Below, piece after piece: positions 17,112-23,180 of a DNA stretch of 24,229 nt (position 1 is the first letter of the stretch; every line of letters begins with the position of its first letter). Source of the DNA: an uncultured Candidatus Saccharibacteria bacterium (GTDB lineage: Bacteria; Patescibacteriota; Minisyncoccia; Phycocordibacterales; GWA1-40-21). Position numbers and translations under genes: made by a program. Below the pieces are notes generated by a model. That model did not search any database and was not told where the DNA came from. It saw only the letters and a list, made by a program, of their open reading frames with translations. The DNA lies in contig CAZPFF010000006.1 of assembly GCA_964585835.1 (NCBI GenBank), forward strand, positions 1 through 24,229, read 5' to 3'.

Positions 17112-17204
17112 TATGTATTGGTGCCAAAGTCATTTTTATTTTAATAATATCTTGTTGTAAAAATATTTTCTTAATCTCCGTCTCTAACGGGACCAGTAAA
17201 ATAT

Positions 17205-17432
17205 CAAACAAAAACGCCCTCGCAAAAAATCAAACTTTGATTTTTTGCGAGGGCGATCTTTTATGAACGCGGTACCACCTCCTTTGTTTATCAGTATGCC
17301 GATAAACCTTATTTTATAACTCTTGTTCGGGTTATTCCGAGAGGTTCTACTCAGACTAAATTAGTCCTTTCTTCCCCAAGCTTGGCTTTTGGGCCAAACA
17401 GCCGTGTTGCGGTGTCTTAACTTACAAGGATC
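17205..17432 (-). promoter_or_regulatory. T-box riboswitch leader (tRNA-sensing transcription antitermination) controlling aspS.
   Basis: On the minus strand the sequence AAAGGAGGUGGUACCGCG matches the T-box consensus AGGGUGGNACCGCG with the UGGN bulge. The antiterminator topology is GAGG[UGGUACC]GCG-loop-CGC-CCUC. Its 3' strand is the 5' arm of a perfect 20-bp terminator hairpin (CGCCCUCGCAAAAAAUCAAA/UUUGAUUUUUUGCGAGGGCG, plus coordinates 17215-17255) followed by UUUUUGUUU. The ~220-nt leader has no ORF and lies directly upstream of an aminoacyl-tRNA synthetase gene. Confidence 0.7.
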
Positions 17433-17460
17433 ATTATACTACAATTCACCAAAATGGCAA
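17433..17460 (-). promoter_or_regulatory. Sigma70-type promoter TTGCCA-16-TATAAT (minus strand) that drives the T-box leader and aspS.
   Basis: Perfect -10 TATAAT (plus coordinates 17433-17438), -35 TTGCCA (17455-17460), 16-nt spacer. It lies immediately downstream of the terminator of the preceding radical-SAM gene. Confidence 0.6.
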
Positions 17461-17500: not shown

Positions 17501-18061
17501 CTATTCTTTTTCTTTCAGAATGAACAATTTCTCATTTGGTGGCAGACCTTCTGGTTGTAAGAGAAGTAACTCCTCTTCTGTTAACCATCGTTTAATTTCA
17601 AGTCTTTTCCAGATGTTTGGCTTAATGGAAACAGCGTGTTTTACCCTGGAGTCGATATAGAGTCTAAAAGATTTTTCATTCGATCTTATTGAGATTAAAC
17701 TCTGAAATTTTTCAAAATCTTCAATATCTTTTAAATTTGCTTCGGCGTGCAGGGTATAATGAATTCCATCAACCATATCCAAAATTTCATTTACTCTCTC
17801 GGTAAAGAAGGCTGTGTAAAGGTAGACTTTGGAATTAGGACATTTTATCTTGACGGCTTGAAGAATATTAATTGTTGAATCAATATTCAACAATGGTTCA
17901 CCGCCAGTAAGACAAATAGAATTAAATCCTGAAATCTCAGACACATCATCGATGTATTCTGCTCTATTCAAGATTGAGCTATAGCTGTTGCAACAGCCCT
18001 GACAAGCTCTATTACAAGTAAATGTAATAATTAGCCTGGCAATATTATTTTGGTTATTCAT
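17501..18061 (-). CDS. Small radical-SAM protein of the NrdG/QueE-like family. An anaerobic ribonucleotide-reductase activating protein is the best guess, but a QueE-type enzyme is equally possible.
   Basis: Cx3Cx2C cluster motif (FTCNRACQGCC) at the N-terminus and the SAM-binding glycine motif ICLTGGEPLL. The segment ...GGEPLLNIDSTINILQAVKIKCPNSKVYLYTAFF...MVDGIHYTL aligns with E. coli NrdG (GISLSGGDPL...RAECPGKDIWVWTGY...LVDG). 186 aa. It has its own promoter (TTGACG-17-TAGTAT, plus coordinates 18165-18193) and a 7-bp inverted repeat gtctatt-gaat-aatagac (18113-18130) in the leader. Confidence 0.55.
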   Translation of the reverse strand: MNNQNNIARLIITFTCNRACQGCCNSYSSILNRAEYIDDVSEISGFNSICLTGGEPLLNIDSTINILQAVKIKCPNSKVYLYTAFFTERVNEILDMVDGIHYTLHAEANLKDIEDFEKFQSLISIRSNEKSFRLYIDSRVKHAVSIKPNIWKRLEIKRWLTEEELLLLQPEGLPPNEKLFILKEKE

Positions 18062-18203: not shown

Positions 18204-18392
18204 TTATTCCAACTTTATAACCTGGTCGCAGTTACAGAGCAATTCTTCCCTATTATCTGCAATCAAAACTGTGTTATTTTTATCAACAATCTTCTTTAAG
18301 ACTTTGACCAAAACTGGTAGATCACTGAGATGCAGGCCTTTTGGTCTTATTTTCCAAGCATTAGCTCCTTTGAATAATACTGAATATACCAC
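18204..18392 (-). CDS. Small hypothetical ORF (62 aa from GTG). The open frame extends to 18439 with no canonical start and contains a degenerate P-loop (DDGKSTLL). It may be a gene remnant.
   Basis: The in-frame upstream extension reads INLPEKILTDDGKSTLLSVVYS..., a Walker-A-like GKST without the preceding glycine. No ATG is present, no RBS is evident, and there is no family match. It sits between the degenerate T-box/terminator element and the radical-SAM promoter. Confidence 0.25.
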   Translation of the reverse strand: MVYSVLFKGANAWKIRPKGLHLSDLPVLVKVLKKIVDKNNTVLIADNREELLCNCDQVIKLE

Positions 18393-18465
18393 AGATAAGA
18401 GTGTTGATTTTCCATCATCAGTTAAAATTTTCTCGGGTAAATTAATCTAATAATTATTAACGAAA

Positions 18466-18553
18466 AACGCCCTCGCAAAAAATCAAAGTTTGATTTTTTG
18501 CGAGGGCGATCTTTACTTCGCGGTATCACCTCCTTTGTTTATCAGTATGCCGA
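18466..18553 (-). terminator. Degenerate partial copy of the T-box 3' module (T-box sequence plus terminator hairpin). It functions as the intrinsic terminator of the two-gene ABC operon.
   Basis: An ~88-nt near-identical copy of the 17215-17303 element, starting right after the ABC gene stop codon (18554-18556). The 20-bp perfect hairpin (18468-18508) plus UUUUUCGUU is intact on the minus strand. The tRNA-acceptor-binding bulge reads UGAU instead of UGGU, and there is no room for a Stem I that does not overlap coding sequence. Confidence 0.6.
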
Positions 18554-20377
18554 TTATTTATGAAGTCCAATCTGTAAATCATACAATCGTTTGTACTCCC
18601 CTCTCTTTTTCTTCAATAATTCATCGTGTGTGCCACTTTCTGTTATTTTACCATCTTTAAAAACGAGGATTTTATTTGCTTTTCTGACAGTGCTTAATCT
18701 ATGAGCAATAACAAAAGTGGTCTTGTTTTGCATCAAATCTTCTAAAGCTTCAGTAATTAGGCTCTCAGTACTAGCATCTAAGGCTGAAGTTGGTTCGTCA
18801 AGAATCAAAATCTTTGGATTGCGAAGCATAGCACGAGCAATAGCAACTCTCTGCTTTTGACCAACAGACAATTTTATACCTCTTTCACCGACAACTGCAT
18901 CCCAACCATCTGCCTGCTTTTCAATAAATTCGGTTAGACCAATCTTCTCGCAACAAGCCTTTACTTCTTTGTCACTAACATTAAAACTACCGTAGGAGAT
19001 ATTTTTTCTAATGGAATCATTAAACAGTACAACTTCTTGTGGTACTACGCCAATATTGCGTCGCAAAAATCCGAGATCAATTTTTCTAATATCTACGTCA
19101 TCAATTAGTATTTCACCACTCTGAGGTAGATTGTAACCTGAAATCAAGTCGATGAGCGTACTCTTGCCAACACCAGATTCTCCCACCAGAGCAATCACCT
19201 CTCCCTGTTTAACATCAAATGAAATGTCTTTCAAAATCGGGGTATCGGCGTTGTAATAAAACTCGACATTTTTTAAAGATAGATTTCCACTAATTTGATG
19301 AAGTTTTATGTATCCCTCTGGTTGATAGTTTTCGGTCGGCATTTTTAAAATCTTTTCTGTTTCAGATATAGTCACAATACCACCCACAATATCTTGCCAG
19401 TCTGACCCAAACTCCATGAGTGGACCAAAAGCCAAAGCGGTGTAAGCATTGAAAGCCAAAAGACTGCCAATGGTTATCTGTCCAGAAATAACTAGCTTGA
19501 GTGATACACAAAAAACGGCAAACTGTGTGAGTAAAATAATTGATTTCTGATAAAAGTTTAAATTGATTTTAACTGAGTCTTTTCTCAGAAAAGACGGTAT
19601 CATCCAGTCCTTAAACAGCTTACTGATTCTAGCCTTTTCATACTTCTCAGTTCCAGACTGTTTGATGGTCAGTGTGTTGTCTAAAACACCACTAAAATCG
19701 TCCCAGACTTTGTGTAGTTTCATCCAAAATTCTTCTTGGAAGTTTGCAAGTGGCTTCACTCCAATATACATAGCAATCGCAAAAACTATTAAACCACAAA
19801 TTAATGTTAGGAGTAGTGTTTGGCTAATATGATAACAAACAACAAAAGCAATAATTAAACTCAAAAATTTTGGTGCCACTCTCAAGATGCCTGTAACAAA
19901 AGTCTGACATATCGTTGCCGCCGCCATATCCATTTTGTGAGTGATTGAGCTTGGATTATTATCTTTTAGAAAAGAAATAGGAAAAAGCAAAATCTTGCCA
20001 ATGCCCTCGGCCATATAGTCGCACCAAATATTATGATTAACTGCCAAGCTTCTGATAGATATCTGCCATTCAATTACGGCCGTGGTTATCTGCACAATAA
20101 TCCATGCCGCCAACAAAGCGCCATAAAGTGGTACCGAAGAAAATAAGATGCTTACATGCTTGCCCGGTGCAATTATTGAATCAAAAAAACTACCGGTAAT
20201 ATAGGGGATAAAACCATTACCGAGCGCGGCGAGAATGGTTAAAATCGAGAGCAACCAGGTGGCTCGACTGTGCATTTTGAGATATCTAATAACTGCACCG
20301 GCCGTTAATTTGATTTTCTCCCCATTAATTTTTTTGTTTTCTTCGGCCATATTTATAAAGTACTTAATATTATACAC
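18554..20377 (-). CDS. ABC exporter, fused transmembrane and ATP-binding domains (type I exporter half-transporter). Likely the heterodimer partner of the upstream paralogue.
   Basis: N-terminal 6-TM domain. C-terminal NBD with Walker A GESGVGKST, signature LSVGQKQRVAIARAM, Walker B ILILDEPTSALD and H-loop VIAHR. The start is either GTG 20377 or ATG 20350 (MAEENKK). Confidence 0.85.
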   Translation of the reverse strand: MYNIKYFINMAEENKKINGEKIKLTAGAVIRYLKMHSRATWLLSILTILAALGNGFIPYITGSFFDSIIAPGKHVSILFSSVPLYGALLAAWIIVQITTAVIEWQISIRSLAVNHNIWCDYMAEGIGKILLFPISFLKDNNPSSITHKMDMAAATICQTFVTGILRVAPKFLSLIIAFVVCYHISQTLLLTLICGLIVFAIAMYIGVKPLANFQEEFWMKLHKVWDDFSGVLDNTLTIKQSGTEKYEKARISKLFKDWMIPSFLRKDSVKINLNFYQKSIILLTQFAVFCVSLKLVISGQITIGSLLAFNAYTALAFGPLMEFGSDWQDIVGGIVTISETEKILKMPTENYQPEGYIKLHQISGNLSLKNVEFYYNADTPILKDISFDVKQGEVIALVGESGVGKSTLIDLISGYNLPQSGEILIDDVDIRKIDLGFLRRNIGVVPQEVVLFNDSIRKNISYGSFNVSDKEVKACCEKIGLTEFIEKQADGWDAVVGERGIKLSVGQKQRVAIARAMLRNPKILILDEPTSALDASTESLITEALEDLMQNKTTFVIAHRLSTVRKANKILVFKDGKITESGTHDELLKKKRGEYKRLYDLQIGLHK

Positions 20378-20394
20378 TATTCGCCACCATTTTA

Positions 20395-22203
20395 TTATTC
20401 GTACTCGCTCTTTTGCTCATTATACATTCCTGCGTAAAGCTCGCTCTTGGCCATCAATTCTTCGTGTGTGCCCATCTCTACTATGGATTGATCTTCTAGA
20501 AGAATAATTTTATCGGCTCGGCGCAGGGTGGCAAAGTTGTGTGAGATAAGTAGAACTGATTTGTCGCTTGGCAGATTTTCAATGTTTCTGAAAATTCTAG
20601 AGGCTGATGGAGAATCTACGGCCGCGGTTGGTTCATCGAGAATATAAATATCAGCGTCACGATAAAAAGTTCTAGCTAGAGCCAACTTTTGTTTCTCCCC
20701 TTTTGATAACTCTTTTCCACCAAACTCCAAACCGATTTTTTCATCATAACCCTTTTCCCATTTTTCAATATAATCAGAAGCGGTACTTTCCTGAGCAGCT
20801 TTTTTAACCTTCTCAAGATCTATAGGCTTTCCAATCTGACCATATGAAATTGTTTTTTTAATTTCAAAATTATAAACTGTAAAATCTTGAAGTAAAACAG
20901 ATAACTTATTCCACCAAGACTTTAAATCAAAATCTTTTAGATTAACGCCATTAATTAATATTTCTCCTTCTGATGGATCGTGGATACGAAGTAATAATCT
21001 AACGACGGTTGTCTTTCCTACTCCGTTTCTACCGATTAATCCGATCTTTTCACCGGAATTGATTGTGAAGGAAATATTCTTTAGGACAAAACTGTCTGTG
21101 TTTGGATATTTAAATGACACGTTGCGAAACTCAATTTTGGGTAGTTTTGGCATTACTGTAATTGCATTCTCCTTTTGCACGACAACTGGTGTAATATTTA
21201 GTAATTCGAACATTTCATTGATATGAATGTTCTTCTCAATCATATTGGAAATATTGTATATTAACTGACTAATCACATCGTTTAGGCGAGAAACAGTTGA
21301 TACAATGAAGATAATACTACCCACACCGATTAGACCCTTCATGGACATATTTACCACCCAAAATACCACCAATATATAGCCGACTACAGCGAAAAGGTTG
21401 GCGAGTATTCTCCAGGTAGCAATTTTGCCTTCGAGAGCAATAATTTTATTGTCGATTATTATCGATGTATCACGCATTTCATCGATAACCTTGTCTTGTA
21501 CGCCAATGAATTTTGACTCAATTAGGGTAAATTTGTTGTAAAAGAAACTCTTCAGATAGGAGTACCAACGGAAACTAGCTGCATTTTCACCTATTAACTT
21601 AAATCTAGAACGGCCAAATTTAATTTCAATCAAGAAGCTTGGAATTGAAAAAGCAATTATTACCAAAATTATTTTCCAGTCAATTGACCAAATAATAGCT
21701 ATAATAGTTGCAGAAATAAATATGTATTTTATATTGGCGAATCCGCGCTCTACAAGGTCTAAGATTGGACTAGTGCCATAACGAAAGGCTCTAGAGTTTT
21801 TGTTTTGGTATTCCGGATCTTCAATGTGGGCAATATCTGCCAATCCTAATTTACTTACTACAAATATATCCAAATCACGTATCATGTTTCTGGATATATA
21901 TGCACTTAAATAGCTTATGACTTGATCAAGAACGTCAGGAATAAATAGTGTTATGGAATATGCAATTAAATAAAATAGAATTGAACTAGTATCACCATCC
22001 TTAACAAAAGTCACAACAGCATCAATCAATTGTGAGAAGTATTTGGTTCCAAAGACAGAAATGACTGCCAAGAGGACAGTGAAAACCACCCGAAGTGTCA
22101 TAGACACAGGCAATCTCTGAAAGTGAAACTTGGTCAAAAACCAGATATTAGTAAAAAAATTATTGAAACCGTTTACTTTTTCTTGTTTTTTTGTTTTATT
22201 CAT
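20395..22203 (-). CDS. ABC exporter, fused transmembrane and ATP-binding domains, with a degenerate signature motif.
   Basis: Walker A GRNGVGKTT, signature LSKGEKQKLALARTF (LSGGQ degenerated to LSKGE), Walker B IYILDEPTAAVD, H-loop LISHN. It lies 17 nt upstream of its paralogue, a layout typical of heterodimeric exporters with one degenerate site. Confidence 0.85.
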   Translation of the reverse strand: MNKTKKQEKVNGFNNFFTNIWFLTKFHFQRLPVSMTLRVVFTVLLAVISVFGTKYFSQLIDAVVTFVKDGDTSSILFYLIAYSITLFIPDVLDQVISYLSAYISRNMIRDLDIFVVSKLGLADIAHIEDPEYQNKNSRAFRYGTSPILDLVERGFANIKYIFISATIIAIIWSIDWKIILVIIAFSIPSFLIEIKFGRSRFKLIGENAASFRWYSYLKSFFYNKFTLIESKFIGVQDKVIDEMRDTSIIIDNKIIALEGKIATWRILANLFAVVGYILVVFWVVNMSMKGLIGVGSIIFIVSTVSRLNDVISQLIYNISNMIEKNIHINEMFELLNITPVVVQKENAITVMPKLPKIEFRNVSFKYPNTDSFVLKNISFTINSGEKIGLIGRNGVGKTTVVRLLLRIHDPSEGEILINGVNLKDFDLKSWWNKLSVLLQDFTVYNFEIKKTISYGQIGKPIDLEKVKKAAQESTASDYIEKWEKGYDEKIGLEFGGKELSKGEKQKLALARTFYRDADIYILDEPTAAVDSPSASRIFRNIENLPSDKSVLLISHNFATLRRADKIILLEDQSIVEMGTHEELMAKSELYAGMYNEQKSEYE

Positions 22204-22220: not shown

Positions 22221-23180
22221 CTAGTCTATATCAACCCCAACGACTTTTCTAACCGTCAGCATCTTGGCCTCGGCGCGAGCGCGGGCCTTCTCACCACCAA
22301 CTTTCAAAATATTCAAAACCTCTGGCAAATTTTTAGCGAGTTCTTTGCGGCGTTCGCGAATCGGAGCGATAAAGGCTTTGATGTCAGCTGCCAAAGCATC
22401 TTTGAGGGCTTTGTATTTACCTTTATTCTCAGCATACAGCTTGTCTAGGTATTCCTTATCACGGAAAAGATTGTGAATAGCTCGAACATTTTTGGGTTTT
22501 TCGCCAGAAGAATCAGTGACAATACTCATAACTGCTTTTTGTATTTCATCATCTTCAGCAAAGAGCTCAATCGTATTGTTGTAACTCTTGGACATCTTCT
22601 GACCATCAGTTCCCGGAACAGTTTCAACGCTTTCCAAAATATAATCCTTTGGAAGTTTAAACACTTCTTCGTTATTAGCAAAAATACGATTAAACTTTTC
22701 AGCCACATCGCGAGCGTACTCAACATGTTGCTTTTGATCTTTACCAACTGGCACCACGTCAGCATCCTGAATGAGAATATCAGCGGCCATGAGTATCGGG
22801 TAATCAAAAGTACCAACGTTTATTTCCTTGTTCTTAGCTTCAGCATCCTTGTAAGCATGAGCACGCATTAGGTATGGCATGGTGGTGATGGTGTTAAAAA
22901 TCCAACACAATTCAGTCACTTGTGGCACATCCGACTGCTTGAATAGACAAACTTTCTTTGGATCAAGACCAATCGCTAAGTAGTCTAGAGCAATATCGAT
23001 CGTTCCCTGTTTTAATTCCTGACCATTCTGGATGAGATTCATGGCATGGTAATCAGCAATAAAAACATAACAATCATGAGTGTCCTGACTGTCCACAAAT
23101 TGCTTCATGGCCCCAAAGTAGTTGCCTATATGCGGTCTTCCAGTCGGTTTGACGCCGGATAGTAAAATTTTCTTTGACAT
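22221..23180 (-). CDS. trpS: Tryptophanyl-tRNA synthetase.
   Basis: Class I HIGH motif (PTGRPHIGNY) near the N-terminus and KMSKS (QKMSKSYNN). 319 aa, typical of bacterial TrpRS. Confidence 0.9.
   Translation of the reverse strand: MSKKILLSGVKPTGRPHIGNYFGAMKQFVDSQDTHDCYVFIADYHAMNLIQNGQELKQGTIDIALDYLAIGLDPKKVCLFKQSDVPQVTELCWIFNTITTMPYLMRAHAYKDAEAKNKEINVGTFDYPILMAADILIQDADVVPVGKDQKQHVEYARDVAEKFNRIFANNEEVFKLPKDYILESVETVPGTDGQKMSKSYNNTIELFAEDDEIQKAVMSIVTDSSGEKPKNVRAIHNLFRDKEYLDKLYAENKGKYKALKDALAADIKAFIAPIRERRKELAKNLPEVLNILKVGGEKARARAEAKMLTVRKVVGVDID

Follow-up and report, generated by a model that had tools for sequence, protein, structure and literature searches.

The window (the whole stretch of 24,229 nt that was analyzed) derives from a patescibacterium, as judged from the homologues of its aspartyl-tRNA synthetase (AspRS), which come from Minisyncoccia/Paceibacteria-type MAGs of lake metagenomes. 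The genes and features considered below all lie on its minus strand and are listed in 5' to 3' order along that strand:

5' of trpS, minus strand: HAD hydrolase gene
22221-23180, minus strand: trpS, start of the trpS-ABC1-ABC2 run
20395-22203, minus strand: ABC1 (from the ORF, NCBIfam and Pfam)
18554-20377, minus strand: ABC2, the second half-transporter gene, with membrane and ATPase domains (from the ORF, NCBIfam and Pfam), final gene of trpS-ABC1-ABC2
18452..18554, minus strand: truncated T-box leader paralogue (copy 2, the fragment), 103 nt, a direct repeat with 17199-17303 that aligns to the complete leaders of L008 and of other Patescibacteria
18537..18554, minus strand: Stem III loop and 3' arm of the fragment, AUCGGCAUACUGAUAAAC, opening on the final nucleotide of the ABC2 stop codon; there is no 5' arm, its place being taken by the end of ABC2
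18519..18534, minus strand: T-box sequence of the fragment, AGGAGGUGAUACCGCG, with UGGU now UGAU at 18528-18525 (changed base 18526)
18463..18508, minus strand: intrinsic terminator of the fragment, a 41-nt perfect palindrome (18468-18508) and U5 (18463-18467), from a terminator scan
18204-18392, minus strand: 62-aa ORF, remnant of an ABC/UvrA-type ATPase (from its translation and an NCBIfam match to the UvrA C-terminus, E 1.5e-6)
17501-18061, minus strand: radical-SAM/Fer4_12 gene, 186 aa, a rare accessory gene with its own promoter-like site and terminator hairpin
17210..17460, minus strand: complete aspS T-box leader (copy 1), from Rfam, a promoter scan and the homologues in L008 and L011
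15687-17111, minus strand: aspS, bacterial-type aspartyl-tRNA synthetase, 474 aa (NCBIfam NF001750, E 2.7e-187), predicted to be controlled by copy 1

The intergenic gaps of the trpS-ABC1-ABC2 run are of 17 nt each. Further downstream, the 62-aa ORF has a Walker A motif (GKST) in the same frame just 5' of it and an in-frame stop a few codons further up. Its derivation from a tandem duplicate of the ABC2 ATPase domain was considered and rejected, as the translation resembles the C-termini of UvrA/AAA_21-type proteins and not the end of ABC2. The radical-SAM gene has a promoter-like site of the form TTGACG-17-TAGTAT (18193 to 18165, minus strand) and a terminator hairpin (17491 to 17467), and its product, characterized by a CX3CX2C motif and Fer4_12, has just 22 detectable homologues among 5.8 billion proteins, the next best being 53% identical. 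These homologues occur in unrelated genomic contexts; some are found in phage-like or defence-like neighbourhoods, e.g., beside a Cap15-like gene in L053. In an NCBIfam profile search, the protein reached the cut-off of neither the QueE nor the NrdG family, and the ideas that it forms a conserved pair with the ATPase or has a role connected with tRNA were rejected, the homologues being few and their contexts unrelated. AspRS matches the 590-position NCBIfam profile in two stretches and is therefore without the GAD insertion domain, a short form that is common to thousands of patescibacterial homologues. A tRNA gene was sought within the window for its discriminator base and none was found. At some distance, on the plus strand (4396-6906), the window also codes for an 836-aa protein in which Pfam recognizes the shoulder domain of the major vault protein (MVP_shoulder, E 1.8e-27), along with a faint Vault_3 repeat.

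An earlier note, made from the DNA letters, had described a near-identical copy of the 3' end of the aspS T-box, about 88 nt long and starting immediately after the stop codon of the second ABC gene. Both points are borne out, the copy being slightly longer (103 nt) and its homology to copy 1 beginning at 18554, where the TAA stop codon of ABC2 (18556-18554) ends in its second A. A repeat search in the window resolves the similarity into two blocks, one pairing 17199-17261 with 18452-18514 (63 nt, 92% identity) and the other pairing 17268-17303 with 18519-18554 (36 nt, 97% identity), which are parted by an indel in the antiterminator loop, of 6 nt in copy 1 and 4 nt in copy 2. By blastn, the two are 91.8% identical over 98 nt (E 5.6e-33), and across the T-box and Stem III part there is one change in 36 nt. 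The distance between them is 1.25 kb. The 20-mer CGCCCTCGCAAAAAATCAAA that makes up the terminator arms occurs four times in the window, i.e., in both arms of the two palindromes, as against 0.00 occurrences expected from 100 shuffles.

Copy 1 is identified as a T-box leader by its motifs and by comparison with relatives, its Rfam match to RF00230 (40.3 bits, E 6.7e-6) lying below the gathering score of 93; at gathering thresholds Rfam returns nothing in the window, and it was a permissive search that gave both T-box matches. Its T-box features are, in order, a strong promoter (TTGCCA-16-TATAAT, 17460 to 17433, scored 11/12), short 5' hairpins, Stem II with a GAA/AGUA S-turn, IIA hairpin, Stem III, T-box sequence (AGGAGGUGGUACCGCG, 17283-17268) with a 7-nt bulge flanked by helices A1 and A2, terminator (17255-17215, exclusive with the antiterminator) and U5 (17214-17210), with an aminoacyl-tRNA synthetase gene downstream. 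L008 (AspRS 99% identical) and L011 (AspRS 83% identical) have homologous leaders 5' of aspS. Stem II differs among the leaders by compensatory changes, and Stem III is intact and invariant in copy 1, L008 and L011.

The terminator places copy 1 in a wider patescibacterial set of leaders. Its 41-nt palindrome, CGCCCTCGCAAAAAATCAAA-N-TTTGATTTTTTGCGAGGGCG, is almost invariant in L010, L015, L016, L019, L020, L038 and the window, including the distal A/U-rich half of the stem, while the remaining leader diverges; the hosts concerned range in G+C from 0.35 to 0.44 and their AspRS proteins are just 34-56% identical. In public collections, the palindrome is found solely inside full Patescibacteria leaders (L015, L016/L021, L019/L042, L020 and L038), with a near-identical variant in L010, each leader standing 5' of an AspRS gene. 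An 18-mer scan of 185,579 genomes, a collection that does not include the source genome, gave 27 loci, two of which are real T-box terminators (L038, L042) and the others single-arm chance matches in coding DNA. A metagenome scan for the palindrome gave eight loci, of which five are real, all of them full T-box leaders, the rest being again chance hits of a single arm in coding DNA. As it occurs elsewhere only within full leaders, the palindrome can be seen as a hallmark of this T-box family rather than as a free-standing repeat or mobile module. No other truncated T-box copy was encountered in any locus examined, and two copies are found only in the species of the window.

In several relatives the leader is separated from aspS by other genes: PemK in L008; DUF1653-Fic-HD in L010; DUF1653 in L015, L019 and L038; and RhuM/Fic on the L020 and P0007 contigs. 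The places concerned are L008:6487-6882, L010:5521-6978, L019 ~5150-5540 and L020:229-1212, with further instances in L038 and L015. Genes in this position should be co-regulated by the T-box, namely, DUF1653 (72 aa, four loci), RhuM/Fic, DUF1653-Fic-HD and the PemK/MazF-like toxin. We found no literature linking DUF1653 to T-boxes.

Compared with these full leaders, the fragment is without a promoter, the 5' hairpins (Stem I/specifier), Stem II/IIA-B and the 5' arm of Stem III, and it runs out into ~11 nt of A/T-rich flank beyond the U-tract. The hairpin and U-tract are intact, as the earlier note had stated: the stem has 19 pairs, nine of them G-C, and is followed by TTTTT, which is the sequence signature of an intrinsic terminator. 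Both terminators are predicted to form 19 bp with a 3-nt loop ahead of U5, at -32.1 kcal/mol (z -9.45) in copy 2 and -32.6 kcal/mol (z -8.6) in copy 1, and the two palindromes differ solely in their central base. The antiterminator helices A1 (GAGG/CCUC) and A2 (GCG/CGC) with the 7-nt bulge can still be folded in copy 2; such an antiterminator, with the canonical bulge, is the minimum-energy fold solely when the 3' arm is withheld (-7.8 kcal/mol in copy 2, -8.3 in copy 1). The antiterminator and terminator of the fragment are mutually exclusive, sharing CGCCCUC, and this is a T-box trait that it does possess. The other four of the five T-box traits tested are wanting. Stem I with a Specifier Loop is absent, the homology to the full leader starting only at the Stem III loop; the Rfam RF00230 match to the fragment region (18499-18697) is of 20.2 bits (E 1), as against the gathering score of 93; the bulge that should pair as UGGN with the tRNA NCCA end reads UGAU; and in place of a 5'-leader position with its own promoter upstream of a synthetase or amino-acid gene, there is an ATPase remnant downstream. 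The change from UGGU to UGAU is as had been reported, with 15 of the 16 bases of AGGAGGUGAUACCGCG as in copy 1 and the second G of UGGN replaced by A at a place where G is invariant in the eight full leaders aligned (8/8).

That there is no space for a Stem I outside coding sequence also stands, for the sequence 5' of 18554 is that of ABC2 itself. The 3' end of this gene is conserved coding sequence, colinear with L008 and L011 to the stop, and its protein ends in LQIGLHK, as in L011. On the minus strand, no promoter-like site was found in the 3' end of ABC2, within 250 nt 5' of the fragment. A Stem I hidden inside ABC2 was rejected on account of this colinearity and the missing promoter, and the scenario that would have turned the fragment into a complete T-box for the downstream genes, i.e., a promoter and a full Stem I in the ABC2 3' end, finds no support when checked in silico.

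Anatomy, homology and comparative arrangement are matters of observation; what they suggest is that the fragment is, on balance, probably a vestigial T-box leader, once whole and since beheaded, whose role is that of a constitutive Rho-independent terminator. Capture of tRNA by T-boxes needs Stem I, along with Stem II/IIA-B in the types with a short Stem I, and the pairing of the UGGN bulge with the NCCA end stabilizes the antiterminator (PMC7583486). With these stems, the promoter and the 5' half of Stem III all gone, the fragment should be unable to sense tRNA. It would be transcribed solely as the 3' UTR of the trpS-ABC1-ABC2 mRNA, where, with no means to capture uncharged tRNA, its weak antiterminator (about -8 kcal/mol) would always lose out to the terminator of 19-20 bp (about -32 kcal/mol). 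From an antiterminator that is without tRNA, mismatched in its bulge and faced with a rival some 24 kcal/mol more stable, we infer that the trpS-ABC1-ABC2 transcript is terminated constitutively, 46-91 nt past the stop codon. Such a terminator would keep transcription of the exporter operon from reaching the accessory genes and the aspS leader that follow it. The proposal of the earlier note that this is a decayed, non-sensing copy of the aspS expression platform is supported by its anatomy and missing domains, and so is its placement as the terminator of the ABC exporter operon, as a hairpin and U-tract from which termination is predicted stand exactly where the trpS-ABC1-ABC2 transcript needs them. 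By its sequence, the element would be best filed as a pseudo-T-box or T-box-derived terminator.

The origin of the fragment appears in a different light from that of a 3' module copied to the site and recycled as a terminator, which was the earlier proposal and is not supported in that form. L008, the closest genome compared, belongs to a related species (flanking genes ~80-83% identical in nucleotides, aspS 89.5%) and has at the same site a single complete leader, its -35 box 25 nt past the ABC2 stop, followed by the PemK toxin gene and then by aspS. The homology of this leader to copy 1 extends from the -35 box through the terminator. The presence of a complete leader at the position of the fragment is what leads us to read the latter as a beheaded remnant of a whole leader. 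In L008, the antiterminator loop has the form TTCATA-[24-nt hairpin]-AAGT, of which copy 1 keeps TTCATA and copy 2 keeps AAGT; the retention of opposite halves implies separate deletions from a longer, L008-like loop, so that neither copy is a present-day copy of the other. The junction in the window, CATAAATAA joined to TCGGC, fits a deletion of ~165 nt from an L008-like arrangement with a 2-nt microhomology, and 10 of 12 nt of the copy 2 flank are like L008, in A/T-rich sequence where such agreement is weak evidence. The fragment is thus better read as what a ~165-nt 5' deletion may have left of a whole leader, or else as a piece that may have come with the neighbouring cargo.

The history that we prefer would begin with an ancestor that had one complete aspS T-box leader right behind ABC2, as in L008. 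Accessory DNA, comprising the ATPase gene that is now a remnant and the radical-SAM gene, would then have intervened between leader and aspS, in the way that other cargo does in the relatives, and a second complete leader would have arisen immediately 5' of aspS. The upstream leader, now redundant, would finally have lost ~165 nt of its 5' end, at the TAA/TCGGC junction with its 2-nt microhomology, as well as 30 nt of the antiterminator loop and the bulge G. We infer this order of events from the sequence comparison. No intermediate arrangement, whether with two full leaders or with a leader followed by this cargo and aspS, was found among the genomes compared. The fragment is in this light most likely a by-product of local rearrangement and not a new regulatory device. 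A relic should evolve neutrally; that there is but a single change in its T-box and Stem III part would be in keeping with gene conversion or with a recent event, but the relic model itself leaves it unexplained.

This history costs at least two events, the gain of a second leader and then the 5' deletion, whereas a single insertion would cost but one. Accordingly, a tentative alternative, which we consider a good deal less probable but deserving of attention, is that only the 3' part of a T-box was ever present at the site, inserted with the cargo as one piece or copied as a module of ~100 nt, and serving as a plain terminator in either case. In the insertion variant, a piece consisting of the T-box 3' end, its flank, the ATPase gene and the radical-SAM gene would have entered between the ABC2 stop and the promoter of the intact leader, from a donor with this cargo 3' of its T-box. 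The cargo lying directly 3' of T-box terminators in relatives offers a natural donor piece of this kind, the cargo region is slightly lower in G+C (0.32-0.35 as against 0.38-0.43), and T-boxes are known to spread via duplication and insertion (PMC2494555). However, the insertion must have hit the ~25 nt that part the stop codon from the -35 box while harming neither; no other isolated 3' module occurs in any locus examined; and the copying variant is opposed by the loop halves, AAGT in copy 2 and TTCATA in copy 1, which exclude a direct copy of the present copy 1. That the repeat is an assembly artefact, collapsed or chimeric, has a negligible chance of being true. The short Logan unitigs L004, L006 and L007 do end inside the palindromes, but this is expected of de Bruijn graphs, and three independent metagenome assemblies from different samples and pipelines (L001/L005, L002 and L003) span both copies in long contigs that match the window at 100% across 1520 bp, so that four assemblies agree; the copies are, moreover, set apart by diagnostic substitutions and the indel.

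The fragment might instead be doing regulatory work, as an attenuator that would conditionally let transcription of the ABC operon pass into the small ORF and on into the radical-SAM gene, which the earlier note had offered as its second possibility. The foldable A1/A2 helices and 7-nt bulge, and the common orientation of the downstream genes, are in keeping with this. It is nonetheless very unlikely, since Stem I, specifier and Stem II, required for tRNA binding (PMC7583486), are missing, the UGGU to UGAU change breaks the pairing with the NCCA end, the terminator outweighs the antiterminator by the margin given above, the ORF that comes next is the remnant of a gene, and a promoter-like site of its own precedes the radical-SAM gene. 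Little more probable, and still improbable, is that the palindromic terminators are attL/attR-like scars of site-specific or hairpin-targeting integration, with the 41-nt palindrome as the site of cargo capture. The accessory segment is indeed flanked by direct repeats, the palindrome is almost invariant among the leaders of distant Patescibacteria, and cargo genes always begin just 3' of it. Yet the repeat takes in another 45 nt on the 5' side of the palindrome, with T-box and Stem III sequence, which fits a leader duplication and not a short att core; a full promoter, Stem I and Stem II stand between the cargo and the second palindrome; there is no second palindrome at the distal end of the cargo in L008, L010, L019, L020 or L038; and NCBIfam/Pfam annotation of the neighbourhood revealed no integrase or transposase gene near the repeats.

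A broader and, in our estimation, doubtful extension of the preferred history would see the aspS T-box leader with its near-invariant palindrome as a hotspot for the capture of accessory genes, many of them toxin-like (PemK, Fic/RhuM) and others of the DUF1653 or radical-SAM type, which thereby come under the control of uncharged tRNA. The window would then represent the aftermath of a capture, in which the leader was re-created by aspS, the old one was beheaded and the resulting repeats made it lethal to lose the cargo, as recombination between the repeats would take the promoter and sensor of aspS with it. Recombination of 17199-17303 with 18452-18554 would delete the cargo along with the aspS promoter, Stem I and Stem II, leaving aspS behind a constitutive terminator. 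By this reasoning, the arrangement of the repeats should protect the accessory genes from repeat-mediated loss.

Parallels might be struck with several known systems. With transcriptional T-box riboswitches (RF00230), the fragment shares the T-box sequence, the 7-nt bulge, A1/A2 and an exclusive terminator overlapping at CGCCCUC, but it differs in lying in a 3' UTR and not in a 5' leader, with the sensing domains gone and UGGN mutated, as befits a pseudo-element. It resembles a Rho-independent terminator in having a G+C-anchored hairpin of 19-20 bp, followed by U5, 46 nt past the last stop of the operon; unlike the typical representative, it is riboswitch-derived, drags along ~45 nt of useless sensor sequence on its 5' side, and has an unusually long and perfectly palindromic stem. 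Duplication and insertion of T-boxes have been documented (Wels et al. 2008, PMC2494555), and partially tandem T-boxes have been mentioned as unexplained (Zhang 2020, PMC7583486). As in those cases, the window has two paralogous elements at one locus in the same orientation, probably from duplication of a leader; in contrast to them, the copies are 1.25 kb apart, with genes that have their own signals between them, and the upstream copy is without any sensing domain, so that they do not act in series on one transcript. In the limited literature covered, no T-box remnant was found described as a 3' terminator. The fragment offers an example of riboswitch decay in which the sensing domains are lost first and the expression platform is kept, the latter presumably surviving because a terminator is useful in its own right. 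It also counsels caution to annotators, as a T-box motif with a terminator is insufficient to call a T-box. The T-box mechanism as currently understood is unchanged by these findings, and their main value is in the context, i.e., a patescibacterial family of terminator-type T-box leaders with a very short Stem I, in which accessory and toxin genes have been repeatedly housed between leader and aspS, the placement of toxin-like genes under the control of tRNA charging being particularly worthy of note.

The parent family, as distinct from the relic, invites comparison with the actinobacterial ileS T-boxes, with their ultrashort Stem I and Stem II/IIA-B. The full leaders of Patescibacteria are like them in having a K-turn, a small codon loop and a Stem II with an S-turn, and unlike them in ending in a terminator, the actinobacterial ones being mostly translational. 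The ultrashort Stem I is described in reviews mainly from translational actinobacterial T-boxes. An ultrashort Stem I together with a Stem II S-turn and terminator/antiterminator is seen at L015:755-965 (minus), L016:12086-12283 (minus), L020:~60-217 (plus) and L038:2491-2664 (minus), to be compared with 17210-17428 (minus) of the window; in these related leaders, it consists of a K-turn, a 3-bp helix and a 7-nt terminal loop with GAC. Papers on T-boxes in Patescibacteria/CPR were not found within the same limited coverage of the literature. In the window (17395-17407, minus strand), L008 (~6236-6250) and L011 (~6572-6590), the 5' hairpin has the loop CAACA and not GAC, and RNAalifold on these three leaders mis-paired the Stem I region. 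If the AAC of this loop, with the A that follows, were the specifier, it would be one for Asn and would suggest that AspRS is under the control of uncharged tRNA-Asn, as in indirect Asn-tRNA synthesis. The stems that carry the CAACA loop covary, with CCG/CGG as against GCGUU/AACGU.
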